A DNA stretch of 64,000 bases. Source: Dehalococcoidia bacterium. Lineage in GTDB: Bacteria; Chloroflexota; Dehalococcoidia; JAUQQI01. The notes under the pieces are model-generated. The model ran no database searches and was not told the DNA's origin. It saw nothing but the letters and a program-made list of their open reading frames with translations. The position numbers were made by a program, and so were the translations under genes. Below are positions 2,898 through 58,029 of this stretch, in pieces. The stretch lies in NCBI GenBank assembly GCA_034434875.1, contig DAOTYJ010000029.1, positions 3,581 to 67,580 of the forward strand. Reading direction: 5' to 3'. Within the stretch, counting starts at the first letter, position 1. Each line of letters starts with the position of its first letter.

Positions 2898-5449
2898 GGC
2901 AGGGTTCCGGCCCAGATCTCGGCGGCGTCGGTCCCGTCGGGCCGGGGCAGGCGGGCCCCGGTGAGGGGGTCGTAAAGGCCCGCCAGGAGCCGGTAAGGGC
3001 CGGGGGGCGGGGCGGCGGGGACGGGGAGGGTGTGGGCATCCTCCACATATTCGCCCACCAGCCAGCGGTCGGTGGGGTGGGTCCAGTGGCGGGGCACGGC
3101 GTCGTCCTGGGCGATGGGCTGCCCGTCGGGCCCGGCCAGGTGGACGAAAACCTTGAGATTTCGGCCCACCGGGGCGTCGGCCCGCCACACCAGGGTAACG
3201 GTGAGGGGCGCGCCCGGGCGGGGCCGGTCCGGGCTTAAGGTTGCCCCCACCAGGGTCACCCCGTCCCCAAACCGGGCCCCGACCCTCACCCCGACGGGGG
3301 GCGGTTCAAACCGACGGCCTGCCGCCGGCCGGACGGCCACCGCCCCCAGCGGCCGCCCGTCCACCCGGAGGCGGACTTCCCCGGCCGCCGGAAGGGTAAG
3401 CTTAAGCCGCTGGCGGACAAAGCCGGGCCGGTCCCCCCCGGGCCCTGCCAGGGGAATCCGGTTGGCGAAACCGGACCCGATAACTTCCAGCCGCAGGTTT
3501 TCGGGTTGAGGGCCGGCCAGCCAGAGCAGTTCGATTTCGAAGGGCTCCCCGGCCGTGACCGGGCCCGGGGGGAGCCGGTAGCCGGCCAGGCCCCCGACCG
3601 GGGGCTCCAGCAGGTTAAAGCCCGCGGGCGGGGTGGGAACGGGGTTCTCGAGCCGGCCCACGGGCAGGGGGGCTTCGACGGCCCCCGTGGGCCGTCCGGC
3701 CGCCGTAAGGCCCAGAATCTCGCCGGAAGCCGCATACACCCGGACCCAGGCCGTGTAGTCTCCCGGCGGCAGGCCGGGCGGAAGCCGCAGCGGCAGGTGC
3801 TGCTCCACGACCTCGCCCGGCTCCCAGCGGTCGGCCGGCTCAAAACGGCCGTTCCGAATGGGCCGGTCGAAGACGGCCCAGACCTCCTCGGCCCCCCGGC
3901 CGAGGGCCACCCGGACGGACAGCGGCCGGGACGGGCTCCTTTCGGCCTGCCAGCGGAGGAGCAGGCCCGGGGCGTCGGCCGGCCGGGGCAGCCGGGCGTA
4001 GGCCGTCAGCCACAGGTCCGGGCCGAACCGGTAGTCGGCCGGTTGCCACTCCAGGTCGAAGGCCGGGCCCGGCCGGTAGACGGTGAGGCGCAGGCCCCCG
4101 GCCCAGCTTTCGGCCTCGCGGCTCAAGGCCGATTCCAGCAGGCCGTCGAAAAGGCCGTCGGGGTCGGTTATCACCTCCGGATTCCAGATGTACCAGACCC
4201 GGCCGGTCCGGGGGAGGTTTTCCCGGATGAACCCGAGCATCGCCTCCGGCCGGTAGGGGGTAACCGGCACGTGTCGGGCCGGGGCCGCCCCCCGGTAGTA
4301 GTACCGAAAGGGCGGGGGTACGTTGAAAAGCACCAGGTCTCCGGGCCCGGCCGCCCGGCTCACCCGGGCCACCACCGACCGGTAATCGGTCCGCCAGAAG
4401 GCCGGGTTTGTTTGCTGGGTCCAGACCGCCCCCACCCCGAGGGCCAGAAGGCCCAGGCCCGCCGGAACGCCGAAGGTCAGGCGGCCGGCCAGACTGGCGG
4501 CCAGAAGCATGGCAAGAAAGGCCATGCCGGTTAAAACATATCGGGGGTGGTAGGCCGGGGCCCGCAGGGCAATTACCAGGGGCGGAATTAGGTTAAAGGC
4601 GGTCATGACCAGGAGGGGTCGGGCCGCCGGCCTGGCCGCCCCCAGAACCAGGGCCGGAATGAGGGCGGCCCCGGGGAGCAGAAGATAAGGATTAAAGCCC
4701 TCCCGGGGGGCCCCGGCCGCCCCCAGCCCCAGCCAGAAGAACTCCCAGGTCCAGCGCAGCCGCAGGAGGGGGTCGGGGGGCAGGGCGAAGGGCGCCCCCC
4801 AGCCCAAAACCTTCGGGATAAGGCCCGAGGCCCAGGGAATGAGGGCGAGGCCCACCGCCCCCAGCCACCCCCACGGCCGGCGCCGGGCTGTGAGGACCAG
4901 GGCCGCCTGGCCCAGCAGAGCGAAGATGTAATAATAAAACGTAAACAGGCCGACGACCGTAAGGCCGGCCCAGGCCGCCCAGCCCCACCGTCCGGGCGGC
5001 CGCAGTAAGAGGGCCGTCGAGAGGGCCGCCAGCGCGGCCGCCGGGGCAAACATCCGGGCCTCCCGGGCGTAGTAAACCAGGGGCGGGGCCGCCCCCAGAA
5101 GGCCCAGCCCGAAAATCAGCCCGGCCGGCCCCGCCGCCCGCCGACACAGGTAGCCCCCGGCCGCCACCAGGACCATCCCGGCCAGGACCGAAAGATAGCG
5201 GAGGGCAAATTCGCCGTTGCCGGCCGCCTGTCCCCAGAAGTGGAGGGCCAGGTAGTAAGCAGGGGGGTGGTTTTCGGCCTCGGCCGAGCCCGTGGCCCGA
5301 TTGTCCCCCCGCAGGATGTCGGCCGGGGGCCCGGCGGCCAGGAGGGCGCTGTAGGCCTCGTCCCACCAGAAGGATTCCCGGTCGAGGCCGTGGACCCGGA
5401 GGGCAAAGGCGGCCGCCAGCAAAAGAAGGGGTAAAAGCCGCCGCGCCAC
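2894..5449 (-). CDS. GT-C fold glycosyltransferase, family 39-like (PMT/ArnT-type polyprenyl-phosphate-sugar dependent), with a ~450 aa C-terminal extracytoplasmic repeat domain
   Basis: N-terminal polytopic region with the first-loop acidic motif ESFWWDEAYSA typical of GT39/GT83; C-terminal internally repeated ~110-aa modules. Confidence 0.7.
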   Translation of the reverse strand: MARRLLPLLLLAAAFALRVHGLDRESFWWDEAYSALLAAGPPADILRGDNRATGSAEAENHPPAYYLALHFWGQAAGNGEFALRYLSVLAGMVLVAAGGYLCRRAAGPAGLIFGLGLLGAAPPLVYYAREARMFAPAAALAALSTALLLRPPGRWGWAAWAGLTVVGLFTFYYYIFALLGQAALVLTARRRPWGWLGAVGLALIPWASGLIPKVLGWGAPFALPPDPLLRLRWTWEFFWLGLGAAGAPREGFNPYLLLPGAALIPALVLGAARPAARPLLVMTAFNLIPPLVIALRAPAYHPRYVLTGMAFLAMLLAASLAGRLTFGVPAGLGLLALGVGAVWTQQTNPAFWRTDYRSVVARVSRAAGPGDLVLFNVPPPFRYYYRGAAPARHVPVTPYRPEAMLGFIRENLPRTGRVWYIWNPEVITDPDGLFDGLLESALSREAESWAGGLRLTVYRPGPAFDLEWQPADYRFGPDLWLTAYARLPRPADAPGLLLRWQAERSPSRPLSVRVALGRGAEEVWAVFDRPIRNGRFEPADRWEPGEVVEQHLPLRLPPGLPPGDYTAWVRVYAASGEILGLTAAGRPTGAVEAPLPVGRLENPVPTPPAGFNLLEPPVGGLAGYRLPPGPVTAGEPFEIELLWLAGPQPENLRLEVIGSGFANRIPLAGPGGDRPGFVRQRLKLTLPAAGEVRLRVDGRPLGAVAVRPAAGRRFEPPPVGVRVGARFGDGVTLVGATLSPDRPRPGAPLTVTLVWRADAPVGRNLKVFVHLAGPDGQPIAQDDAVPRHWTHPTDRWLVGEYVEDAHTLPVPAAPPPGPYRLLAGLYDPLTGARLPRPDGTDAAEIWAGTLP

Positions 5450-13666: not shown

Positions 13667-15790
13667 TCAGCCCAGGACCTCCGCCACCTGTTCCTCGGCC
13701 CCCACGAAGCCGCAGCCGTCGGCGGTGCACCGGCGGGCGCCGTTTTTGCCGGCGACCAGCAGGCCCCCGCACCGGGGGCAGGGCTCCGCCAGGGGCCGCT
13801 CCCAGACGGTGAAGTTGCAGGCCGGGTAGTTGATGCAGCCGTAGAACACCCGGCGGGTTCGGCGGGCCCGGCGCTCCACCAGCTCGCCCCCGCACTGGGG
13901 ACAGCGGGCGCCGGTGCCGACGGCCACGGGCCGGGTGTAGCGGCACTCGGGGAACCCGGTGCAGCCGATGAACTGGCCGTACTTGCCGGTGCGGGTCATC
14001 AGGGGCCGGCCACAGTCGGGGCAGGCCTCGTCGAGGAGCTCCTTGCCCAGCTCGATTTTGGCCAGCCGTTCGGCGGCCTCCAGGGCCTGCTGGAACGGGA
14101 TGTAGAAGTCCCGGAGCACCTCCACCCGGCTGCTTTCGCCCCGGGCAACCTCATCCAGCTCCTCCTCCATCCGGGCGGTGAACTCCACGTTGAAGACCTC
14201 GGGGAACTGGGAGACCAGCAGGTCGTTTACGACCATCCCCAGCTCGGTGGGGATGAGCCGCCGGTCCTCCCGGCGGACGTAGCCCCGCTCCTGGATGGTG
14301 GCCAGGATGGGGGCGTAGGTGCTGGGCCGGCCGATGCCCAGCTCCTCCAGGGTCTTAACCAGGCTCGCCTCGGTGTAGCGGGGGGGCGGCTGGGTGAAGT
14401 GCTGCTTGGGCGTGACCTCCACCGGGCTCAGGGCCTCGCCGGCCTGAAGGGGCGGAAGCTGGCCCTCTTCGGCCTCGTCCTCGTCATCCCTGCCCTCGAT
14501 GTAAACCTCGAGGAAGCCCGGGAACTGGATGACCGACCCGGTGGCCCGCAGCAGGTAGACCCGCCCGTCGGAGGTCTGGTCCACCAGGATGTCCACCGAG
14601 GTCTGCTCTAAGGTGGCCGACTCCATCTGGCTGGCCACGAAGCGCTTCCAGATAAGGTCGTAAAGCTTGTACTGGTCGGGCGTAAGGTACTGCTTTAGCT
14701 GGGCCGGTTCCCGGAAGACCGAGGTGGGCCGGATGGCCTCGTGGGCCTCCTGGGCGCCCTTGGCCTTCTTCTGGGCGTAGCGGGGGGTTGGGGGCGCAAA
14801 GTCGGCCCCGAACCGGCGGGTGATGTACTCTCGGGCCTCGGCCTTGGCCAGGTCGCTTACGGCCGTGGAGTCGGTCCGCATGTAGGTTATCAGGCCGACC
14901 TGCCCCTCCGGCCCGAGGTCAACCCCCTCGTAAAGCTGCTGGGCGATGAGCATCGTCCGCTTGGCCGTGAACCGAAGCTTCCGGGAAGCCTCCTGCTGGA
15001 GGGTGCTGGTGGTGAAGGGCGGGGCCGGGTCCCGCTGAACCGTCCGCCTGCGAACCTCCCCGACGGCCCACCGGCCGGACCTCAGGGCGGCCACCAGGGC
15101 GGCGGCCTCGTCGCCGGTCTTAATGCTGAGCTTCTCCTTGGCCCCGGCAATTCCCCAGAGGACGGCCCGGAAGCGGCGGTCGGGCCGGTCGGCCGGGGTC
15201 AGCAGGGCCTCCACCGTCCAGTACTCCTCGGGCACAAAGGCCTGGATCTCCCGCTCCCGCTCCACCACCAGCCGGAGGGCCACCGACTGCACCCGCCCGG
15301 CGGAGAGCCGGTGCTGGACCTTCCGCCAGAGCAGGGGGCTTACCAGGTAGCCGACCAGCCGGTCGAGAATCCGGCGGGCCTGCTGGGCCTCGACCAGCCG
15401 GAGGTCGATGGGTCGGGGGCTCCGGAACGCCTCGGCGATGGCCTTGGGGGTGATCTCGTGGAAGACGACCCGCCGGACTTTGTTCGGGTCGGCCTGGGTC
15501 GCCTCGATAATGTGCCAGGAGATGGCCTCCCCTTCCCGGTCGGGGTCGGTGGCCAGGAAGACCTCCGGGGCCTCGGCAACGGCCTCCTTAAGCTGGCGGA
15601 CAATGGCCCGCTTTTCCTTGGGAACCAGGTACTTCGGCTCAAAGTCCCGGTCGATGTCGACCCCGAGCCGGGACTTGGGCAGGTCCCGGATGTGGCCGAT
15701 GGAGGCGATAACCTTATATTCCCGGCCTAAATACTGGCCGATGGTCTTGGCTTTGGTGGGGGATTCGACGATGACTAACTTCTTCGCCAT
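13667..15790 (-). CDS. topA: DNA topoisomerase I
   Basis: Toprim start [22 protein letters not shown] and C-terminal zinc ribbons CPDCG…CTGFPEC, CPQCGG…CINYPAC, CPRCGG. Confidence 0.95.
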
Positions 15791-15802
15791 CCCTCTTAAC
15801 GT

Positions 15803-15947
15803 TTAACCCCGAACGTAATATTGTCCGCCGACGTGCCGGACCAGCCCCTTAAGCTCCAGCAGGGCCAGGGTCGCCCCGACCTCGCCCGCCGGCCTTCCGG
15901 CCTGGCGGACGAGGTCGTCGATGTGGGTGGGGCTGTGGTCCAGCAGC
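15803..15947 (-). pseudogene. dprA: dprA C-terminal winged-helix segment, encoded in a different frame from the body
   Basis: Alternate frame reads VKLLDHSPTHIDDLVRQAGRPAGEVGATLALLELKGLVRHVGGQYYVRG, the canonical DprA C-terminal domain. Confidence 0.6.
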
Positions 15948-15951
15948 TTCA

Positions 15952-16905
15952 CTATAATAATTCTAACTCAGTATCCGGGGCCGCCTGGCGCAGGCCGACC
16001 TGGTGGTTGAGCCGGGCAAGCTTTAGGGCCTCGAGGATGTCGTCGGCCCCGGTCACCAGGCCGGCCCCGTCCTGGATGAGGCGGTTGGTTCCCCGGCTCT
16101 GGGGGGAGGTTATCGGGCCGGGGACGGCGAAGACGTCCCGGCCCTGGTCGGCGGCGTACCCTGCGGTGATGAGGGCCCCCGAGGCCTCGTCGGCCTCGAC
16201 GACGACCACCCCGAGGCTGAGGCCGCTGATGATGCGGTTGCGAATGGGGAAGTTCTGGGCGGCCGGCTGGGTGCCGGGCGGAAACTCGGTTATAAGGGCG
16301 CCGGCCTCGGCGATGCGGTCGGCCAGCTGGCGGTTTTCCCAGGGGTAAACCTGGTCTAAGCCCGAGCCCAGGACGGCCAAGGTCCAGCCCCCAGCCTCCA
16401 GGGCCCCCAGGTGGGCCTCGGTGTCGATGCCCACGGCCAGGCCGCTCACGACGGTGACGCCCCCGGCGGCCAGGTCCCGGCTGAGGGCCCGGGCGACCTG
16501 GCGGCCGTAATAGGTCGGGCGGCGGGTGCCCACCACGGCCACGGCCCAGGCCTGGGCCGGGAGGAAGTTACCCTTAACAAAGAGGACGGCCGGCGAGTAG
16601 TCGATGACCCGCAGCCGGTCCGGGTAATCCGGGTCAGCCCAGGTGAGGACCTTGAGGCCGAGGCGGCGGCAGGCTTCCAGGTCGGCCGCCGGATCCCGCC
16701 TGGCCCGGGCCGCAAGCACCCGGTCGACCAGCTCCGGTTCGAGGCCGGCGGCCAGGAGCCCGGCCCTGGGGGCCTTCCAGGCGTCGGCCAGGGCGCCGAA
16801 GTGGGCCTGGAGGCGGCGGATTCGGGCGGCCCCGAGGCCCTGAACCCGGCTGAAGGCGACCCAGCAGGCAAGCTCCCGGTCGTCAATCCCCATCCCGGCC
16901 GACAT
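15952..16905 (-). pseudogene. dprA: DNA processing protein DprA (Smf), main body. It terminates at a TAG inside an AT-rich patch
   Basis: Rossmann-like DprA core …GLSLGVVVVEADEASGALITAGYAADQGRDVFAVPGPITSPQSRGTNRLIQDG…. Confidence 0.85.
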
Positions 16906-16955
16906 TTTACCACAGGAAAGGCCCCGGGCTTTAAGAGCTGCCCGCCGTCAGAACA

Positions 16956-16979
16956 GGGCTTTCCGGCGCCGGAAAGCCC
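16956..16979. promoter_or_regulatory. Perfect 24-bp palindrome GGGCTTTCCGGCGCCGGAAAGCCC in the divergent dprA/mntH intergenic region
   Basis: Seen directly; no downstream T-run on either strand, so an operator is more likely than a terminator. Confidence 0.4.
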
Positions 16980-17103
16980 CGGCGGAAGGCTGGGCGTCCG
17001 GCATGCCGGCCGGTTTTGACACCGCCCCGATTTTGGGTTAAGCTTAGGTCTAGAGTTAAGCAATCTTAAATATGGGCGGCTGCGCCGGAAGGAGCAGGCG
17101 CCC

Positions 17104-18441
17104 GTGGCCGACAACGCCGACCTTCCTAAGCCGGTCCGGCCCTCCCGCTGGTGGGAGCTTCTCGACGATGCCTCCACCCAGGATGTGGTCAGGGCCGTGG
17201 TCCTGGGCCGGGCCCGGTTGCCCCTCTGGAGGCGGTTGCTTGCCTTCCTCGGCCCGGCCTTCGTCGCCTCCGTCGCCTACATGGACCCCGGAAACTTCGC
17301 CACCAACATCTCGGCCGGGGCCCAGTACGGCTACATGCTCCTCTGGGTGGTGGTGATGAGCAACCTGATGGCCATGCTCATCCAGTCCCTCTCGGCCAAA
17401 CTGGGCATCGCCACCGGCCGGAGCCTCCCCGAGCTTATCCGGGACCATTTTCCCCGCCCCCTGGTGCTCTTCCTGTGGGTGGTTGCCGAGCTGGTGGCGA
17501 TGGCCACCGACCTGGCCGAGTTCCTCGGGGCGGCCCTGGGGCTCAACCGGCTTTTCGGCGTCCCGATGTTTCCGGCGGCCCTCATCACCGGCGTCCTCGC
17601 CTTTTTGATATTGAGCCTGGAGCATTACGGTTTCCGGCCCCTCGAGGCCGTCATCACCCTGTTCGTCGGGGTTATCGCCCTCTGCTATTTCGTCGAGGTC
17701 GCCTTCTTTGCCCACCCCGATTGGGGGGAGGTCGGGCTGGCGGTCATCCGGCCGCGGCTTACGGACCCCGAGAGCGTACTGCTGGCCGTCGGGATCCTGG
17801 GGGCCACGGTTATGCCCCACGTTATCTACCTGCACTCGGCCCTGACCCAGGGCCGGGTGGTGGTTCAGGGCGACGCCGCCAAGCGGCTGATTTTTCAATA
17901 CGAGGTGTTGGATGTTATCCTGGCAATGGGAATTGCCGGCCTGATCAACGGGGCGATGCTCATTATGGCGGCGGCGACCTTTCACCCGAGCGGCTACCAC
18001 GAGCTCACGGAGCTTACGGATGCTTACCTGACCCTGCGGCCGCTGCTCGGGCCGCTGGCCGCAACGGTCTTTGCCATCTCCCTCCTGGCTTCGGGCCTCT
18101 CGTCGTCGACGGTGGGTACCATGGCCGGGCAGGTTATCATGCAGGGGTTTCTCCGGCGCCAAATCCCCATCTGGGTGCGCCGGCTGGTTACGATGGTCCC
18201 GGCCATCGCGGTGATCGGGGCCGGGTTTGACCCGACCCGGACCCTGGTCATAAGCCAGGTTGTTTTATCCTTTGGGATTCCCTTCGCCCTGGTCCCCCTC
18301 ATCATCTTCACCCGCCGCCGGGAGCTGATGGGCCCCCTCGTCAACTCCCGCCTGACCACGGTCCTGGTGGGCGTCGTTGCCCTCGTCATCGTCGGCCTTA
18401 ACCTCTTTCTCCTTTACCGCACCCTGACCGAGGGCCTATGA
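17104..18441 (+). CDS. mntH: NRAMP-family Mn2+/Fe2+ transporter
   Basis: TM1 signature AYMDPGNFATNISAGAQYGYMLLWVV plus ~11 TM helices. Confidence 0.9.
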   Translation: MADNADLPKPVRPSRWWELLDDASTQDVVRAVVLGRARLPLWRRLLAFLGPAFVASVAYMDPGNFATNISAGAQYGYMLLWVVVMSNLMAMLIQSLSAKLGIATGRSLPELIRDHFPRPLVLFLWVVAELVAMATDLAEFLGAALGLNRLFGVPMFPAALITGVLAFLILSLEHYGFRPLEAVITLFVGVIALCYFVEVAFFAHPDWGEVGLAVIRPRLTDPESVLLAVGILGATVMPHVIYLHSALTQGRVVVQGDAAKRLIFQYEVLDVILAMGIAGLINGAMLIMAAATFHPSGYHELTELTDAYLTLRPLLGPLAATVFAISLLASGLSSSTVGTMAGQVIMQGFLRRQIPIWVRRLVTMVPAIAVIGAGFDPTRTLVISQVVLSFGIPFALVPLIIFTRRRELMGPLVNSRLTTVLVGVVALVIVGLNLFLLYRTLTEGL

Positions 18442-25429: not shown

Positions 25430-27515
25430 CGTGAAACTGGTCATCAACGAGGACACCACATTTTCTTATCGGCGATGAGCGGGGGGATATTCCGCCCGGG
25501 GCCGACTTCGGCCTCTACCACGAGGATACCAGGTTTCTTTCGGCCTACACCTTCAGGCTCGACGGCAAAGCCCCGGTGTATCTTGCCGCCCGAACCACCG
25601 AATCGTACGCGGCGGCCCATTTTCTCACCAACCCGGCCCTGAGCTCGGTCCGGGCCGGCCAGCTGGGCATCGTCCGGCGCCGGCAGGTGGGCCGGGGGCT
25701 CCACGAGGATATCGACATCACCAACTACGGCGACGGGGAGGCCGCCTTCGACCTTGAGCTCCAGTTCGGGGCCGACTTTGCCCACATCTTCGACGTGAAG
25801 GGTCGGGTGGAAGGCCGGACCCGGACGCCCCCTGGGCGTCCGGGTCCGGGGTGGGCCCTGGGGGAAGGGGGGAGGAGCCTCCGGTTTGAGGCCCAGCGGT
25901 CCGGTTTTGCCCGGCGGCTGGTGGTAAACCTTTCGGCGGCCCCCGACTGGCGGGGCACCCGGGCCCGGTTCGGGCTGAGGCTCCGGCCCCACCAAGGCTG
26001 GCACCTTTGCGTCGATTTCCTGACCCTGGGGGAACACGACGGGCCGGCCGGGCCCACCTACACCTGCCGGGCGGGCCCGGCCGGCCGTTCTGGGGGACAG
26101 GCTCCGCCGCCACCGGGAGCTGGTGGAGCCGGCCCCCAGCCTCGAGACCGACAGCTATCTTCTCAAGCACGCCTACGAGCGGGCCGTCCACGACTTTGCC
26201 GCCCTGTGCGTCCGGGGGGAGGAGGTGGCCGGGGGCGGAACCTTGGTCGCGGCGGGCATCCCCTGGTTCGTGGCCCTCTTCGGCCGGGACTCCCTTATAA
26301 CGGCTTACCAGACCGTTAATTTTTACCCGGAGGTGGCCCGGGGGTTCTCCAAACCCTGGCCCGCTACCAGGGCCGCCGCCTCGACCGGCGCCGGGCCGAG
26401 GAGCCGGGGAAAATCCTCCACGAGCACCGCTTCGGCATCGCCGGCGGCCACCGGGGCTTTCCGCCTTACCCTTACTACGGCTCGGTGGATGCCACGCCCC
26501 TGTTCCTGATGGTGGCCGCCGGCCTCTTCCGCCTCACCGGGGACCTGGAGTTTATCCGGTCCCTCCGGCCCAACCTGCTGGCCGCCCTGGGCTGGCTGGA
26601 AAGATACGGCGACCGGGACGGCGACGGCTACGTCGAGTATATCCGGGAATCTAAAGTCGGCCTGGAGAACCAGGGCTGGAAGGACTCGTGGGATTCGGTC
26701 CGGTTTCGGGACGGCCGCCTGGCCGAGCCGCCCATCGCCCTCTGCGAGGTCCAGGGCTACGCCTACGCCGCCCGGCTCGGGCTGGCCGAAGTTTTAGAGG
26801 CCCTGGGCGAAGGCGGGGAAGCGGCCCGGCTGCGGGCGGCGGCCGCCGGCCTTAAGGCCCGGTTTAACCAGGACTTCTGGCTGGAGGACCGGCAGTTTTT
26901 TGCCGAAGCCCTTGACGGCCGGAAAAACCGGGTCGATTCGCTGACGTCGAACGGCGGCCAGGCCCTCTGGACGGGCATCGTGGCCGGGGACAGGGCGGCC
27001 GAGGCGGTCCGGCGGCTCCTCGGCCCCGAATTCTTCTCGGGGTGGGGCATCCGAACGATGGCGGCCGGGGAGGGCGGCTACAACCCGGTCTCTTACCACA
27101 ACGGGTCGGTCTGGCCCCACGACAACAGCCTGATCCTGGCCGGCCTGGCCCGCTACGGGTTTTACGACGGGGCCGCCCAGCTGACCGGGGCCCTCCTGGA
27201 AGCGCTGGGCTTTCAGCCGGAGTTCCGGTTCCCCGAGCTTTTCGCCGGCTACGGCCGGGATGAGGCCCCCTTTCCGGTGGACTACCCCACCGCCTGTCGA
27301 CCCCAGGCCCGGGCCACCGGGAGCGTCTTTTTTTCGACGATGCTGGGCTGGGGGACGACCCCTGGGACCCGCCGGGCGCCCGGCGGGAGGCGTTCCTGCC
27401 GCCGGGGGTGGGCCGGGTGCGGCTGGCCGGGGTGTGGACCCGGGAGGGACGGGTCACCGTCGAGGCAGAGCGGGCAGGGAACACCGTAAGGCGACGGGTA
27501 ACCGCCGGAGGTTAG
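25430..27515 (+). pseudogene. Glycogen debranching enzyme (amylo-alpha-1,6-glucosidase, bacterial/archaeal GDE type), with multiple frameshifts
   Basis: N-domain VKLVINEDTTF/LIGDERGDIPPGADFGLYHEDTRFLSAYTFRLDGKAPV, central LETDSYLLKHAYERAV…AAGIPWFVALFGRDSLIT, C-region VDATPLFLM…NQGWKDSWDS…CEVQGYAY…SGWGIRTM…YNPVSYHNGSVWPHDNS. Indels sit at T4 ~25460, ~26050-26100, G5 ~26349 and T7 ~27328. Confidence 0.8.
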
Positions 27516-28842: not shown

Positions 28843-30460
28843 ATGACCTATAGCTGCGGCCGGCGCGAGTTTCTAAGGCTCGGTCTGGCGGCCGGGCTCG
28901 GCCTTACGGCCGGCTGTCTTCCGGCCTCCCCGCCGCCGGCCCCGGAACCGGCCCGGCCGGCCGGGGGACCCAGGTACGGCGGCATCCTCACGGTTCGGAT
29001 TGACGGGGACCCGCCCCACTTCGACATCCACCAGGCCTCCACCTCTTCAGTCCTCTGGCCCCTGGCCCCGTGCTATAACCTGCTGGTGCAGTATGACCCG
29101 CAGGACCCGGATAAAATCGTTCCCGACCTGGCCGAGCGCTGGGAAGTAAGCCCCGACGGCAAAATTTACACCTTCTATCTTAGGCGGGGCGTGAAGTTTC
29201 ACCACGGCAAGCCCTTCACCGCCCGGGACGTTCGGGCCAGCTTTGAGCGGGTCATCCGGCCGCCCCAGGGGGTTATCAGCCCCCGGCGGGGGGTGCTGGG
29301 GGTGGTGGACGGCATTGAGGTCGTCGACGATTATACGGTCCGGTTTATCCTTAAGCGGCCGGCCCCGTCGCTTTTGGCCAACCTGGCTCAGGGCTGGAAT
29401 GTCATCTACCCGGAAGATATCCTCGAGGCCAAGGGCGACATGAAAAAGGACGTGGTCGGCACCGGGCCCTTTAAATTCAAGGCCTACACGCCTGGGGTCA
29501 GCATCGAGCTTGACCGCAACCCCGAATACCACGTGCCAGGCCGGCCCTACCTGGACGGCATAAAATTTTTTGTAATTCCGGACCCGAACACGGCCCTGGC
29601 GGCTTTTATCTCAGGCCAGCTCCTGATGTACCGGCCGGGCGTGCCCGCCGAGGCCGAGGAGGCCAAACGGACCCTGGGTGACCGGATCGGGATTCAGTAA
29701 AGTAAACGGGCTCATCTTTGACTCTTTAAACCTCAATGCCCGGCGGAAGCCCTGGGACGACCCGCGGGTCCGGCAAGCCGTCTCCCTGGCCATCGACCGG
29801 AACGCGGCCATTGCCGTCCTCGCCCAGGGAGAGGGGGCAGTTGGGGGCGCCATGCCGGCCGGCGGGCAGTGGGCCCTGCCGGCCGATGAGCTCGGCAAGC
29901 TCCCCGGCTACCGGCCCGATAAGGGGGCCGAGCTGGCCGAGGCCCGCCGGCTGCTGGCGGAAGCCGGCTACGGTGGCCCCTTGCGGGCGACCCTCTTAAC
30001 CCGCAAGGGGGCCGAGTGGGAGCCGGCCTCGGTTTTCATCCGGGATCAGCTGGCCAGAATCGGCATCGACGCAACCCTTAACGTGCAGGAGACGGCCACG
30101 GCCTTCGGCCTGCTTAACCGGGGCGAATTCGACCTGGCCCCCTGGGTCCACGCCGTCGCCGTCGACGACCCGGACGCCATCTTCGGCGAGTTTTATCTGT
30201 GCGAAAGCGAACGGAACTATTCGGCCGTCTGCCTGTCGGAACTGGATGCCCTCTTTCAGCGTCAGTCCCAGGAGCCGAACCCGGCCGAACGGAAGAAGCT
30301 GGTCTGGGAGCTGGACCGCAAGGCGCTGCTGGGAAACATAAAAGTCATCATCGGGTGGCGCTTCGACCGCTTGTTGCACTGGCAGACGGTCAAAAACTAC
30401 CGCCGACATCCGAGTTTGTATAACAACCAAAAATTTCAGGACATCTGGCTCGAACAATAA
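28843..30460 (+). pseudogene. ABC transporter substrate-binding protein, family 5 (peptide/nickel type), with a Tat signal and lipobox; frameshifted near 29695
   Basis: RREFLRLGLAAGLGLTAGC (twin-Arg plus LTAGC lipobox) and SBP_bac_5 core. The two pieces 28843-29700 and 29678-30460 overlap at an AT-rich AGTAAAGTAAA patch. Confidence 0.75.
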
Positions 30461-34740: not shown

Positions 34741-36044
34741 TTGGCTAGATTTGTCTTCAAAGAAGTCGTCAGGTCGGGAAAAGAGGTCCGAGCCAGAACT
34801 TTTATGTTGCCCTTCTCCGAACTTATTGGGCATCGGTTAGAGGCCGACGGTCGGTTCGAATTTAGGGTCGGGGACTTGGCCGTCGATCTTAAGACGCCCG
34901 AAGGACTCGTTACGGCCGGGCTCGTCCGGCCGAAAACGGGCGGGCCCAAAGCCTGTCCCTGGGACCGGGTCCGGGTGGACCGGTCGGCCCGACGCCTTCG
35001 GTTGGAGGGGGACGGCTTTTCCGGGCTTCCGGAGGAACAGGTGGGTCAACTGGTGCTGTTAAAAAGGGACATCCTGGATGCCTTGGTGATCGACCTGGCC
35101 AACCGCCGGGCGGCCCGGGCCAACGACCTCTGGCTGGGGGCGTCCGGTGGGAGGTGGCGGCTGGTTGGGGTTGAGTTGGGGCCGCGGGCGGTCCTCCGGC
35201 GGGTCAGTCGCGGCCTGCTGGGCCGGGGCCCTGGGTCGGGTTTGGTCCCCTGGGAGGATATTGAGCTTTTACGGGGGGACCCGGCGGCGGCCCGGGCCGG
35301 CCGCGACTACCACCGGCAACTGGCCAGGCTGAGTCCGGGGGAAATAGCCCGATTGCTTGTTCTGCTGCCTTACATCCATGCCGCCGAGGCGTTGACCCTG
35401 CTGCCGGAGTCGAAGGCGGCCGACGTATTTGAGGCCATGGGCCTTCAGCGGCAAGTTCAGGTGGCCGATGAGCTCGGCCGGGAAACTTTGGGGAGGCTGT
35501 TGAGCCTGATGGCCCCGAACCTGGCGGCCGCCTTTTTGCGACGGCTCGACCTGGCGCAGGCCCGGGAACTGCTGGAGGCCCTGCCCAAGGAGCGGGCGGT
35601 GAGGGTCGAACAGCTTCTCCGGTACCCGGCGGATACTGCCGGGGGCTAATGACCAACGAATTCGTTACCGTAGAAGCCGGCCTTACCGCCGGCGAGGCCC
35701 TGGCCGCCTTGCGGGATGCCCTGCGGGAGCCGGACTTTGTCTATTTTATCTACGCGGTTGCCGCCAAAAACGACCGACGGCTGGCAGGTGTCGTGAGCCT
35801 GCGGGACCTGGTGGTGGCCGATGCCGACCGTCCCCTCTCGGACCTTATGACCCGGGATGTGGAGGTTATTCGGGTCGGCGAGCGGGCCGACCGGGCCGCC
35901 TGGCGGGTCGTGGAAACCCAGCTGGCAGCCCTGCCGGTGGTTGACGAGGCGGGTCTGATTGTGGGGGTCTTGACGGTGGATGCGGCCGTGGCCGCAATTG
36001 CCCCGCCGGTCTGGCGGGCGCAGGCACCCCGGCTTTTTGCTTGA
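34741..36044 (+). pseudogene. Cytoplasmic PRC-barrel(x2) - MgtE_N - CBS-pair protein, with a -1 frameshift at 35645-35653
   Basis: MgtE_N helices …LSPGEIARLLVLLPYIHAAEALTLLPESKAADVFEAMG… ending YPADTAGG, then stop, then LMTNEFVTV (the canonical MgtE YPEDTAGGLMT junction lacks one T in GGCTAATGACC). CBS pair in 35649-36044. Confidence 0.65.
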
Positions 36045-36048
36045 GGGG

Positions 36049-37348
36049 GGAGGCTTTTTGGGGGGTTCGGCTGAACATTCGGGGACGCAGCGTGGTCCTG
36101 TACGGCCTGAGGCGGCCCCTGCCCGGTTTTCTTGGCTGGGTCCTAGTCTTAGGCCCGGGCATCATCGCCGCCTGCGCCGGGAACGATGCCGGTGGCATCG
36201 CCACCTACAGCTAGGTGGGTGCCCGGTTCGGCTACGACTTTCTTTGGCTGCTGGTGCCTATAACCGCGGCCCTGATGGTTATTCAAGAAACTTGCGCCCG
36301 GATTGGGGCCGCGACCGGGCGGGGTCTGCTGGACCTGGTCCGGGAGGTCTTCGGCCTGGGCTGGTCGCTGTTTGCGGTGGGGCTTGTGGCCATTGCCAAC
36401 GCCGGGCTTGCGGTGAGCGAGTTTTTGGGCATCGGGGCGGCGGCCGACCTTCTGGGCATCAGCCCCTACCTGGCGGCGCCCCTGACCGCCGGCCTTATCT
36501 GGTACCTGGTCGTCCACGGAAGCTACCGGTCGGTGGAGAAGATTTTCATTGGGATGGCCCTCGTTTTCCTGGCCTATCCGGCCTCGGCGGTTATAGCCGG
36601 GCCCGACTGGTCGGAAGTTGTCCGGGGGCTGGTGCCCCGGGTTCGGTTGGAGCCGGAGTTTCTGGCGATGGCCGTTGCCCTACTGGGGACAACCATTACC
36701 CCGTACATGCAGGTTTTCCAGCAGGGTTCGGTGGTTGATAAGGGTGTGAGCCGGGCCCGCTCCGGTCCGTAGCGGGCGGATGCTTACCTGGGGTCGGCGA
36801 TTTCAAACCTGGTTTCGGTATTTATTATCGTTGCCACCGCCGCAACCCTCTATGGGTCGGGAACCGGGGTGGAAAGCGCCGCGGATGCGGCCCGGGCCCT
36901 GCGGCCGGTGGCGGGGGATGCGGCTGAGGTCCTGTTCGCCGTCGGACTGTTTGGGGCGTCGGCCCTGGCCGCGGGAGTTCTGCCCCTGGCCACCGCCTAC
37001 GCCGTAAGCGAAACTTTCGGCCTGCCGAAAGGGGTGGACCTGGATTTCCGGCGGGCACCGGTCTTTCTCTGGACCTTCACCGGCCTCATCGGTTTCGCGG
37101 GGGGTGTGCCCTTAATCCCCGGTCTGCCCGTTATCGACCTGCTGGTCAGGTTGCAGGTGCTCAACGGCCTGCTTTTGCCGGCTGTGTTATTCTTCGTCCT
37201 CCGCTTGGCCAACAACCCGAAACTGATGGGCAGGCTTAAAAATAAGCGGACCGAGAACGCCGTGGGCTGGGGAAGCCTCGGGCTTATATCCCTGGCGGCG
37301 GGAAGCTACCTGGCCGCCCAGCTTGGGTCTATCCTCGGGCCCGGCTAG
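36049..37348 (+). pseudogene. NRAMP-family-like divalent cation transporter, immediately downstream of the MgtE_N-CBS gene, with two in-frame TAG codons
   Basis: …LGPGIIAACAGNDAGGIATYS*VGARFGYDFLWLL… parallels Nramp TM1 DPGNFATNISAGAQYGY, with the TAG at the conserved Gln position. Second TAG at ~36770 within …SRARSGP*RADAYLGSAISNLVSVFII…. The C-terminal half 36869-37348 is in the same frame. Confidence 0.65.
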
Positions 37349-37896: not shown

Positions 37897-38136
37897 GTGA
37901 GCGGCCTGCGGGAAGCCGTCGCCCAGCTTACCCGGCGGCTCGTCCGCCCGACTCCGCCCCGCCCCCCGCTGCCGGAGGTTCAGCCGTGCTGCGCCTATGA
38001 GCTGGTCACCCGGCAGATGCTGGAGGATATGCGGGCCGAGCTGGCCGAGCTCAAGGCCCGGGTAAACGGGTTGCTTTTCATGCTGGCCGGGGCGATCCTG
38101 CTGGACGTTATCCTGCGGCTGGCTCGGCCGGGATGA
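37897..38136 (+). CDS. Small coiled-coil protein with a C-terminal TM anchor; its stop overlaps the TerL start (ATGATG)
   Basis: VSGLREAVAQLTRRL…CCAYELVTRQMLEDMRAELAELKARVNGLLFMLAGAILLDVILRLARPG; start codon uncertain. Confidence 0.35.
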   Translation: MSGLREAVAQLTRRLVRPTPPRPPLPEVQPCCAYELVTRQMLEDMRAELAELKARVNGLLFMLAGAILLDVILRLARPG

Positions 38137-39509
38137 TGCCGCCCCTGCGGCCCTACCAGCTGGAGCCCTTCCGGGCCATCTGGGGGTCGGTTCGGGCGGG
38201 GGCCGGCTTAAGCTTTTCGGTGATGATGGCCCGGCAGGCGGGCAAGAATGAGCTTTCGGCTCAGCTGGAGGTTCGGCTGCTTTTAAGGTTTGCCCCCTTT
38301 GGGGGCGACGGGATAAAGGCCAGCCCCACCTTTCGGCCCCAAACCTTAAATTCCCTGGACCGGCTTAAGGCTAGGCTGGATGATGCCGGCCTGGGGGGCC
38401 TCTGGCGGGCCGAGCGGGGCTACACCGTGCGCCTCGGCCGGGCCCGGATGGTCTTTCTTTCGGCCGAGCCCTCCGCCCGGGTGATGGGCCACACCGCCGG
38501 CCTCATCCTGGAGGTGGACGAAGCCCAGGACGTGCTTGCGGAGAAGTTTGACAAGGACTTCCGGCCGATGGGGGCGGCCGCCAACGCCACCACCGTCTAT
38601 TACGGCACCCCCTGGGACGGAAATTCCCTGCTGGAACAGGTCAAGGCCCGGCATCTGGAGCTGGAGGGCCGGGACGGGATTCGCCGCCACTTTGAGTACG
38701 ACTGGGAGACGGTGGCCCGCTACAATCCGGCCTCCGGCCGCTACGTGCGGGCCGAGCGGGCGCGCCTGGGCGAGGCCCATCCCCTCTTTCAGACCCAGTA
38801 TGCGCTCAGGCCGGTGGCCGCCCTCAGCCGGACCTTCGATGGGGCCGACCTGCGCCTCCTGGCCGGCGAGCACCCCCGGCTTCTGGGCCCGGCGGCCGGG
38901 GAGCAGTACGTTGTGGGGCTGGACCTGGCCGGCCAGGCCTGGGACGAGCTGCGGGGGCTGGGCGGCTGGGACCCAGCCGGACGCCGGGACTCGACGGTGG
39001 TTACGGTGGGCCGGGTGAGGACCGGCAATTTCGGCCCGGTCCTTGAAATCGTCCACCACGAGGTCTTTACCGGCCTGCGCCACGACATCCTGGTCCCCAG
39101 GCTGGTGGAGGTCATCCGCCGCTGGCGGCCGGAGGCCGTGGCCGCCGACGCCACCGGTCTGGGCCAGCCCATCGTCGGCCTGCTGGGGGCCGAATTCGGG
39201 CGGCGGGTCGTCTTGCCGGTGGTGTTCACGGCGGCCCGGAAAAGCGGCCTTGCGGCCGAGCTTATCGCGGCGGTGAAGGCCGGCCGGCTCAAGGTCTATG
39301 CGGACGCTTCGGCCGGGCGGGCCGAGTTCCTGCGCCAGTTCGGGCTGGCCCGGACGAGGGCCCGGCCGGGGGGCCACCTGGAGGTGGCGGTGGACCCGGC
39401 CGAAGGCCACGATGACTTTTTAATTTCGGCCGCCCTGGGCCTGGAGGCCGCCGGGCAGGTCCGGCCCCGGCGGGCCCGGGGCTGCCCGGCGGCGGGGGCC
39501 GGGCCGTGA
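38133..39509 (+). CDS. Phage terminase large subunit (TerL)
   Basis: N-terminal ATPase (P-loop-like ARQAGKN, Walker B LILEVDEAQDV) and C-terminal RNaseH-like nuclease (YVVGLDLAGQ…, …HDDFLISAALGL). Confidence 0.8.
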   Translation: MMPPLRPYQLEPFRAIWGSVRAGAGLSFSVMMARQAGKNELSAQLEVRLLLRFAPFGGDGIKASPTFRPQTLNSLDRLKARLDDAGLGGLWRAERGYTVRLGRARMVFLSAEPSARVMGHTAGLILEVDEAQDVLAEKFDKDFRPMGAAANATTVYYGTPWDGNSLLEQVKARHLELEGRDGIRRHFEYDWETVARYNPASGRYVRAERARLGEAHPLFQTQYALRPVAALSRTFDGADLRLLAGEHPRLLGPAAGEQYVVGLDLAGQAWDELRGLGGWDPAGRRDSTVVTVGRVRTGNFGPVLEIVHHEVFTGLRHDILVPRLVEVIRRWRPEAVAADATGLGQPIVGLLGAEFGRRVVLPVVFTAARKSGLAAELIAAVKAGRLKVYADASAGRAEFLRQFGLARTRARPGGHLEVAVDPAEGHDDFLISAALGLEAAGQVRPRRARGCPAAGAGP

Positions 39510-39521
39510 AGGAGGATTTCG

Positions 39522-40838
39522 ATGGCTGAGGACCTGCCCCGGCTGATCCGACGGCTGGACCTGGACCGGATGCGCCGCTACCAGGAGGCGCTGGGGCTTT
39601 ACGCCGGCACCCACTGGCCCGAGGGGCCCGGCCGCGGCCGCCGGCGGACCCTGACCGTGAACTACATCCGAACGGTGATTGATAAGGTTGCGACTTACTT
39701 AATGGCGGGGCGGGCGGTGGTAATTGAGCCGGCCGACCCGTCCGAGGCGGCCCTGGCCCGGGCCACCGAGGCCGCCCTGCGGGAGGTGGCCGAGCAGAAC
39801 GAGCTGGACTGGCTGGAGCTGGAGACCGAGGTCGATACGGCGGTGCTGGGCGACGGGGCTTATAAAGTCTGGTGGGACCCCGGGGCCGGGCAGGTTCGGG
39901 TTTCGGCCCCGGATGTCCAGGGCCTGTACGCCTGGCCGGACCCGGCCTCGCCCTTTGGGCCCCGGCGGGCCGTTCTGCGCCAGCTGCTGCCGGCCGCCGA
40001 GGTTGAGGCCCGGTTCGGGGTTGGGGCCGACCGGGAAGAGGTGGAGGTTATCGAGGACTGGACGGCCGGGCAGTTTCAGGTCTGGGTGGACGGCCGGCCC
40101 CGGCCGGCCCGGCCGAACCCTTACGGGTTTATTCCCGTTGTGGTCTTCCCCAACGTGCGCAGGCCCAAATCTTTCTGGGGCGAATCGGATGCGCTGGTCC
40201 TTAAGGAGGTCCAGCTGGAGCTTAACCGGGCCTTCACCCAGCTTTCCCGGATAATGGAGGTTTCGGGCAACCCCATTGCGGTCCTTTCGGGGGTTACCGA
40301 GGCCGAGGATATTGCCGTCCAGCCGGGGGCCGTCTGGACCCTGCCGGAGGATGCCAAGGCTTATCTGCTGGACCTGCTGGCCAACGGGGCGGCCCAGCTC
40401 CACCTGGAATATATCAATGCCCTCTACCGGATGCTTCACGACCAGGCCGAGGTTCCCCGGACGGCCTTTGGGGACAATCAGCGCAACCTTTCGGGGGTGG
40501 CGCTGGAGGTGGAGATGCCGCCCCTTTACCAGCGGGTTCAGCGCAAGCGGCTCATCCGGACGGCGGTTTACAAGCGGCGAAACGAGTTTATCCTGCGGCT
40601 TTTAGAGCAGTTCACCGGGCGGCGCTTTCTGCACCGGCAGCGGGTGGTGTGGGGGCAGGTGACGCCCCGGGACGAGTCCCGGCGGGTGGCCGATTTTGGG
40701 CTGCTGGTGGAGCGGGGCCTGCGGTCCCGGCGGGGGCTGATGGACGAGCTTGGGGTGGCCGACGCCGAGGCCGAATTCGGCCGCTGGCTCGAAGAGCAGA
40801 ACCGACTGGGGCCCGGTCGCGGCGAAGGTCAAGGTTAG
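39522..40838 (+). CDS. Phage portal protein
   Basis: ~440 aa, placed directly after TerL; N-terminal …RRYQEALGLYAGTHW…RTLTVNYIRTVIDKVATYL… pattern typical of portal proteins. Confidence 0.7.
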   Translation: MAEDLPRLIRRLDLDRMRRYQEALGLYAGTHWPEGPGRGRRRTLTVNYIRTVIDKVATYLMAGRAVVIEPADPSEAALARATEAALREVAEQNELDWLELETEVDTAVLGDGAYKVWWDPGAGQVRVSAPDVQGLYAWPDPASPFGPRRAVLRQLLPAAEVEARFGVGADREEVEVIEDWTAGQFQVWVDGRPRPARPNPYGFIPVVVFPNVRRPKSFWGESDALVLKEVQLELNRAFTQLSRIMEVSGNPIAVLSGVTEAEDIAVQPGAVWTLPEDAKAYLLDLLANGAAQLHLEYINALYRMLHDQAEVPRTAFGDNQRNLSGVALEVEMPPLYQRVQRKRLIRTAVYKRRNEFILRLLEQFTGRRFLHRQRVVWGQVTPRDESRRVADFGLLVERGLRSRRGLMDELGVADAEAEFGRWLEEQNRLGPGRGEGQG

Positions 40839-57191: not shown

Positions 57192-58029
57192 GTGGTTCAG
57201 GTGCAGCTTGAGAACGAAAAGTGGGACCTCACCAATTTTGCCAACAAGGGGCGGCTTCTTGATACGGTCCGGGCCGAGGCCGAAACTTTCTTCGGCCTGT
57301 GGTGGACCCCCGAGTACTGGGAAAACCCCACCGCCTCAGGCCACTGGCAGGTCCGGGACCTGGTCGGCCACATGGTGGATGTCATCGAGGGCTACCTGGA
57401 GCGGTTCGACCTGGCCCGGCGGGGGCAGGAAGCCCCGCCCCCCCTACGGCCTTAAGGTGATGGCCAGCCGCCTCGACGAGCGGGCCCGGGCCTTCCGGAC
57501 CACGCCCCGGGAGGAGCTCCTGGCCCGGCTTCGCCGGGACTATGACACCTTGATGGGGATCTTCGAGGGCTTAACCGAGGCCGAGTGGACCGGACTTATG
57601 GTCTCCCACCCGTATATGGGGCCCGTGCCGGCCTGCTGTTACCCGATATTCTAGAATAATTACAGCGTGCACAAATGGGATATCCGGGAGCGGCTGGGGG
57701 TGCCCCACGGCCTCTCGCCCGACGCGGCCGACTTTCTGGTGCCGTGGATGTTCGTCCTCTGGCAGGCCACCGCGGACCTGGAGCGGGTCGGGCCGGAGCC
57801 CATCCGGGTGGGCTTCAGCGTCTCGGGCCGAAACGGCGGGACCTGGCGGGTCCAGGTGGACCGGGAAGGCTCCAAGTATGAGCGGGGGCCCATCGACGAC
57901 CTGCCGACGGTCTTCGAGTTCGACCCGGCCAGCCTGGTCCTCACCGCTTTCGGCCGGATTCGGGCGGGAACCGCCTACGGCGACCAGGGCATGGCCCAGC
58001 GCTACCGGGAGATCTTTTTCTCGATTTAA
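57192..58029 (+). pseudogene. DinB_2 / mycothiol-maleylpyruvate-isomerase N-terminal-like (TIGR03083-type) protein, disrupted
   Basis: …SGHWQVRDLVGHMVDVIEGYLERF… and …SVHKWDIRERLGVP… His-containing motifs. Frameshift in a C7 run at 57438-57444 and an in-frame TAG at 57652-57654 within the AT-rich patch TTCTAGAATAATTACAG. Confidence 0.6.

Follow-up and report, generated by a model that had tools for sequence, protein, structure and literature searches.

In characterised DprAs, dimerisation, ssDNA binding and interaction with RecA are functions of the SAM-like and Rossmann domains (PMC9769556). The winged-helix (WH) domain of Gram-negative-type DprA binds ComM, and a Helicobacter pylori dprA ΔC-ter mutant phenocopies ΔcomM and transforms significantly better than ΔdprA (PMC12012524). 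Two domain architectures are described: the three-domain DprA/Smf proteins, such as those of Rhodopseudomonas palustris and Deinococcus radiodurans, combine a SAM domain, a Rossmann fold and a winged helix (DML1), and Streptococcus pneumoniae DprA naturally does without the WH domain.

Here we follow up the dprA gene of an uncultured Dehalococcoidia-like Chloroflexota bacterium, contained in a 64,000-nt stretch of DNA (hereafter the window), in which the coding sequence breaks within an AT-rich patch near its 3' end. We consider it likely that the break is a genuine single-nucleotide deletion, i.e. an ordinary truncating mutation that involves neither an insertion nor a recoding signal.

The two reading frames of dprA

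The 5' part of dprA is an open reading frame of 317 codons on the minus strand (15955..16905; ORF list and Pfam) which ends ...PDTELELL, encoded by CCG GAT ACT GAG TTA GAA TTA TTA TAG. It begins with a SAM-like N-terminal domain, continues through the Rossmann-fold core of DprA and a linker, and breaks off halfway along WH helix α1. The core is recognised by PF02481 (DNA_processg_A) over residues 79-285 with an E-value of 2.5e-78 and a score of 262.5 bits, as compared to the gathering cut-off of 29.6. Codon 318 is a premature, frameshift-made TAG stop (15952..15954, minus strand); in the codon alignment the closest relatives have ATA (Ile) at this position.

The 3' remainder of the gene (VKLLDHSPTHIDDLV...GGQYYVRG; 15806..15952, minus strand; ORF list and Pfam) comprises 49 codons in the -1 frame and runs through the WH domain from the end of α1 via α2 and α3 to the wing, with its stop codon at 15803-15805. 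PF17782 (DprA_WH) matches this second ORF with an E-value of 6.8e-14 and 52 bits, over profile positions 19-61 of 61 only. The WH domain is not part of the polypeptide that carries the Rossmann core, and is found in the -1 frame beyond the TAG. The GTG codon that opens the remainder (15952..15950) shares its G with the TAG, yielding a UAGUG stop/start overlap. The ORFs and the profile matches bear out, at 15950-15955, the sequence-only reading that dprA is split by a stop and a change of frame. The same reading had placed the WH domain in the +1 frame; the actual relation is -1 (equivalently, +2). Insertion of a single base brings the two parts back into one frame.

Downstream of the dprA stop, after 12 nt, starts topA, which encodes the 707-aa topoisomerase I (13667..15790, minus strand; ORF list and Pfam). 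The dprA-topA order is kept in all of the relatives, and gene order as a whole is the same in loci L001-L010. Across dprA-topA-aroQ-pepP the flanks share 85-91% DNA identity with sister genomes, in keeping with an orthologous and syntenic locus.

The AT-rich junction and its intact relatives

While the GC content is 68.9% in the window and 71.5% in dprA, it falls to 21% in the patch, which is the lowest 24-nt stretch of the gene. 20-nt windows with at least 15 A/T are scarce (129 of 63,981, 0.2%), and approximately 24 such AT-rich patches are spread across the window, roughly 10 of them within other genes; the patch is unusual, though not unique. As for its codon usage, which had been described as very rare for this DNA, the description holds for TTA (2.8% of Leu codons in the window; ATA makes up 10.5% of Ile codons) but not for GAA, which at 27% of Glu codons is not rare.

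Since the patch looks compositionally foreign, the break had been tentatively put down to a short insertion or replacement, for which a mobile-element scar would be one possible source, and an alignment with close relatives had been proposed as the means of detecting it. We searched with the joined protein and drew the DNA of the relatives from ENA, Logan, JGI and NCBI MAGs labelled Dehalococcoidia or Chloroflexota. The search returned the exact 317-aa product together with full-length, 362-367-aa DprA proteins at 81-93% identity. At least ten intact homologues come from sister MAGs that have the same AT-rich DNA, and every one of them that we list here (P0001, P0003, P0004, P0121 and P0124-P0129) is a continuous DprA of 362-367 aa. 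Across the junction the intact relatives read TELELLIVKLLDH, ELELLLV or ELELILV, with no break.

At the DNA level the nearest group has GAG TTA GAA TTA TTA ATA GTG AAA CTG (ELELLIV) and a second group has GAG TTA GAA TTA ATA CTG GTC AAA CTG (ELELILV), to be compared with GAG TTA GAA TTA TTA -TA GTG AAG CTG in the window; that is, GAGTTAGAATTATTAATAGTG in the relatives against GAGTTAGAATTATTATAGTG in the window. Over 15950-15960 the intact form is TTATTAATAGTG and the deletion form is ...TTATTATAGTG.... Comparison with L003, L004 and L007-L010 places the 1-nt deletion at 15954..15955 on the minus strand, where TTA ATA GTG of the relatives is TTA TAG TG in the window, the AA being short by one A (on the plus strand, the missing base is a T). 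When one A is put back, the gene encodes a 367-aa protein that is collinear with the relatives and in which the PF17782 match extends to residues 307-362. A single-base difference that restores one DprA was the result that the sequence-only reading had named as speaking against it, and it is what we found, through the sequences of relatives and not through raw reads.

Because the intact relatives have the same AT-rich codons, the patch is ancestral and conserved in the clade, and is neither an insertion nor foreign DNA. The amino acids of the patch align with the conserved WH α1 motif of intact relatives of the same length, the frame is broken by a difference of one base only, and dprA in the window, far from being longer than its intact orthologues, falls short of them by 1 nt, leaving no extra DNA to account for. 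The patch is missing in more distant Chloroflexota DprA genes and, in that sense, is of within-clade origin, which is the one further point in favour of an inserted sequence. Taken together, the protein and DNA alignments with intact relatives rule out the insertion or replacement, to which we assign a vanishingly small probability.

We also considered whether the AT-rich patch is a general trait of DprA genes, and rejected this: in none of 15 more distantly related DprA homologues does the corresponding position have an AT-rich patch. Its absence from the more distant Chloroflexota genes indicates that the patch arose inside the clade at some earlier time. The invariant AT-rich core GAGTTAGAATTA (15958..15969, minus strand), which encodes E-L-E-L, is identical in 13 of the 13 related loci compared, at 81-93% amino acid identity. 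No other stretch of dprA has four or more consecutive codons that are all invariant in the codon alignment of relatives; elsewhere in the gene, 40% of the degenerate codons that are invariant at the amino acid level are also codon-invariant. Why a 12-nt core of rare codons should be invariant across species-level divergence in a gene of 71% GC is a mildly interesting leftover of this analysis. One locus, L011 (JAUQQI010000083.1), was left out of the codon analysis. It belongs to a MAG of 0.87x coverage, and its dprA (3001-4100) carries, in the 5' half, several frameshifts resembling low-coverage errors, with an intact junction (ELELILVKLL). These frameshifts are most likely low-coverage assembly errors, and as such an example of artefactual frameshifts in the clade.

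Genuine mutation, artefact or recoding

The sequence-only reading had offered a genuine lesion and a local sequence error as alternatives, and the assembled sequences favour the former. Apart from the window, the same deletion is present in ERZ650669 (a SPAdes contig of 75 kb, cov 16), in ERZ27245891 (a MEGAHIT contig of 81 kb), in a Logan contig of SRR7067823 that occurs in 2 samples, and in one JGI record, and four contigs besides the window are recorded with the exact 317-aa product; the lesion is thus reproduced in all four other records. The deletion-bearing contigs are 99.98-100% identical to the window and carry private SNPs relative to the window and to each other, which indicates that they are separate consensus sequences of one near-clonal population and renders a random error unlikely. 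Were the deletion an artefact, the true genome would read TTA ATA GTG and encode an intact, 367-aa DprA. Such an error would have to affect one base only, and it would fall in a low-complexity AT island of a 70% GC genome, where coverage may dip. Furthermore, the data are all metagenome assemblies, possibly of overlapping samples from one site, so that a systematic error or an unfixed polymorphism is possible. Against this stand the identical deletion from three assemblers and at least 2-3 read sets, in contigs that differ by SNPs elsewhere; the context, AA to A with no long homopolymer; and the lack of any intact protein identical to that of the window strain among about 15 billion proteins. 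We therefore regard an artefact as quite improbable. Judging from these assemblies, the split is very probably a genuine mutation, and the contigs place the lesion as fixed in one near-clonal population.

A genuine frameshift could still be bypassed if programmed recoding in the AT-rich patch, be it a -1 frameshift, a hop or transcriptional slippage, produced full-length DprA. In favour of recoding, the stop directly follows rare TTA codons at which the ribosome may slow, and a stable hairpin (z = -3.45) lies downstream. However, the 17-nt overlap between the -1-frame TGA and the 0-frame TAG (GAGTTAGAATTATTATAG) lacks a zero-frame slippery heptamer of the form X XXY YYZ, re-pairing of tRNA-Leu(UAA) on AUU is impossible, and there is no homopolymer run on which RNA polymerase could slip. 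No stimulatory structure was found 5-9 nt downstream; the one strong hairpin starts ~35 nt beyond the TAG, which is too distant for a stimulator. Finally, the homologues found are all in frame, so a shift is not a conserved feature. On these grounds programmed frameshifting and slippage were rejected. We give recoding only the slimmest of chances and treat programmed frameshifting as effectively excluded. A search of the whole window with Rfam (gathering threshold) and ARAGORN returned no known RNA element or tRNA, at the patch or elsewhere.

With a one-base deletion as the preferred explanation, the sequence of events would be as follows. The ancestral AT-rich codon run GAG TTA GAA TTA TTA ATA GTG (E-L-E-L-L-I-V) lost one A at its TTA|ATA junction. 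This loss turned codon 318 into TAG and shifted the last 49 codons to the -1 frame. What the cell can now produce is a DprA of 317 aa in which the SAM-like and Rossmann-fold domains are present and the WH domain is absent; the 49-codon remainder might perhaps be translated at a low level via termination-reinitiation at UAGUG. It is unlikely that the remainder would restore function, as most of helix α1 is missing from it.

We polarised the changes on the window's own branch with L007, L003 and L009. The 5' part of dprA has 11 synonymous and 3 non-synonymous changes, and the 3' part has 3 synonymous changes and 1 non-synonymous (T to S), a total of four branch-specific changes that is too small to decide on selection in the 3' part. 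No second lesion was found on this branch in either part of dprA, from which it follows that the event is recent or that both parts are still constrained. A split gene that still functions would account just as well for the absence of decay in the last 49 codons.

Elsewhere in these 64 kb, another three or four genes are broken. One of them, which encodes a family-5 solute-binding protein (28843-30460, plus strand), is split by a frameshift: ORF 28843-29700 matches positions 1-184 of the SBP_bac_5 profile and ORF 29678-30460 matches positions 196-364, the frame changing between 29678 and 29700, near CAGTAAAGTAAACGG, and the same split is present in the ERZ650669 and ERZ27245891 contigs. At 34741-36044 (plus strand), with the junction at about 35641-35651, an MgtE_N ORF ends ...YPADTAGG-TAA, and a CBS-domain ORF starts at an ATG overlapping the MgtE_N stop and reads LMTNEFV. 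It seems that the loss of one base from a G run near 35641-35646 has divided what was a single MgtE_N-CBS protein; the split is common to the ERZ650669 and SRR7067823 contigs. A second Nramp-family gene (36215-37348, plus strand) has an in-frame TAG at 36770-36772, with Pfam positions 8-190 before the TAG and 237-356 after it in the same frame. Two other assemblies share this lesion, and an intact mntH-like copy is located at 17104-18441. We considered AT-rich patches as a general cause of the gene breaks and rejected the idea: of the other lesions, one frameshift lies in A-rich sequence, another lies in a G run, and the in-frame TAG has a GC-rich context, and since they differ in both kind and context, they point to no common mechanism. 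The presence of several broken genes within 64 kb fits ordinary lineage-specific gene decay and suggests ongoing gene loss in the lineage.

Two further features of the window deserve mention. The ORF of an MGH1-like glycoside hydrolase (26343-27489, plus strand) encodes 334 aa that match profile positions 68-327, and seems either to be split or to lack its 5' end; its counterpart in ERZ650669 is an intact gene of 695 aa. Up to ~27375, ERZ650669 is strongly divergent from the window, with mismatches every few bases and several indels; beyond this position the two are nearly identical, with two mismatches over ~4.8 kb. Position ~27375 is a recombination or strain-chimera breakpoint. Phage-like genes occupy 38133-40838 (plus strand), where a 458-aa ORF with a faint Terminase_6C match in the precomputed annotation is followed by an SPP1-type portal protein (PF05133). 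They adjoin a low-GC3 region (28.8-37.4 kb) that is home to most of the broken genes, and may represent a prophage remnant or a genomic island.

A truncated or a two-piece DprA

The AF2 model of P0001, an intact homologue that is 90% identical, has a mean pLDDT of 92.7 and resolves the WH domain into α1 (313-321), α2 (329-336), α3 (340-352) and a two-stranded wing (356-366). With α1 at 313-321, the stop at codon 318 cuts through helix α1 and not at a domain boundary. This bears directly on whether dprA might be a functional split gene, in which the WH domain is made as a separate 49-aa polypeptide that complements the 317-aa core non-covalently. Two routes to such a polypeptide can be proposed, namely termination-reinitiation at UAGUG, or an internal TAGAAT promoter giving rise to a leaderless GUG mRNA.

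Several observations favour the split gene. The stop and the start overlap by one base; the remainder has no further lesions, its sole amino acid change on the branch (T to S) being at a variable site; the -10-like TAGAAT lies 7 nt upstream of the GTG; a similar TAGAATAATTA is situated 9 nt ahead of the GTG start of ORF 57667-58029; and other pipelines and assemblies call the 49-aa ORF as a separate gene. The opposing evidence is structural as well as comparative. In the AF2 model the cut falls within WH helix α1, which speaks against a self-sufficient downstream folding unit, and the split is absent from every other lineage, being confined to one near-clonal population. No Shine-Dalgarno sequence is present 5-12 nt upstream of the GTG, whereas most genes of the window have one. 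For ComM to be tethered to DprA-coated DNA, a free WH peptide would first have to rebind the core. In addition, the promoter scan revealed no sigma-70-type site, and the substitution counts are too few to argue for selection. On balance, a functional split gene is unlikely.

The promoter route calls for a closer look. The -10-like hexamer TAGAAT inside the core GAGTTAGAATTA (15965..15960, minus strand) lies ~165 nt upstream of topA, and given that topA starts just past dprA, this position suggests an internal topA promoter. One could propose that GAGTTAGAATTA is a nucleotide element under selection in the clade, most plausibly an internal promoter of the essential topA with TAGAAT as its -10 element, and that by placing the GTG 7 nt downstream the deletion has created a leaderless WH mini-protein next to the DprA core. 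If true, this would be a naturally two-piece DprA, consisting of a truncated core plus a separate WH domain. However, a consensus scan of 15600-17200 on both strands detected no sigma-70 promoter, TAGAAT has neither a -35 box nor a TGn extension, and of the 35 TAnAAT hexamers that the window contains, 22 are intragenic. The internal promoter thus stays a candidate lead only, and we hold the selected-promoter scenario to be decidedly unlikely.

Three -10-like hexamers are found just upstream of start codons, at 15960-15965 (minus strand), 57652-57662 (plus strand) and 16903-16912 (minus strand), and hint at leaderless or short-leader transcripts in this organism. The last of these, TGgTAAAAT, overlaps the annotated ATG of dprA; the relatives start at the methionine of MGIDD, 12 nt downstream. 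On the opposite strand, at 15953-15958 (plus), the deletion turns the antisense-strand TATTAA of the relatives into a perfect TATAAT, for which no matching -35 box was found and which is probably coincidental. The motif TAGAATNATTA occurs twice in the window as compared to an expected 0.2 occurrences. This is a post-hoc pattern, not significant on its own, and was set aside.

Returning to the truncating deletion, we can ask what a 317-aa DprA might do. By analogy with work in H. pylori and Vibrio cholerae, it would be predicted to keep ssDNA binding and protection as well as RecA loading, and to be incapable of recruiting the ComM branch-migration helicase. Provided that the organism can be transformed in the first place, the allele would then be a hypomorph rather than a null. 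The earlier description of the lesion as inactivating is probably too strong, given that the SAM-like and Rossmann domains are whole and that the H. pylori ΔC-ter mutant outperforms ΔdprA. In a naturally transformable lineage we would expect a defect in ComM recruitment and a recombination of incoming DNA that is reduced rather than abolished. In practical terms, this population should be annotated with a frameshifted dprA for a WH-less DprA, and neither as having an intact competence gene nor as harbouring a recoding site. Outside the annotation of this one uncultured bacterium, the split matters little.

Truncation by a one-base deletion belongs to a well-known kind of event. As in ordinary frameshift pseudogenes of bacteria and MAGs, a single-base indel leads to a premature stop, the downstream part is still recognisable and broken genes are nearby; all that sets the present case apart is the coincidental overlap of the new stop with a GTG codon that was already there. 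The best solved relatives of the window's DprA are PDB 3MAJ and 3UQZ. Just like the three-domain DprA/Smf proteins, the repaired protein has PF02481 followed by PF17782, and it aligns along its whole length with R. palustris DprA (PDB 3MAJ), over residues 13-362 with an E-value of 1.3e-55. In contrast to these proteins, the WH domain in the window is out of frame after codon 317, and the encoded product is two-domain. In its domain content the 317-aa product resembles S. pneumoniae DprA (PDB 3UQZ; aligned over residues 91-297), as well as the engineered ΔC-ter variant of H. pylori that keeps partial transformation activity (PMC12012524). It differs from the naturally two-domain DprA in that it is the result of a recent frameshift in a clade whose other members all keep the WH domain, and in that it ends in a dangling tail, composed of the 30-residue linker and half of helix α1.
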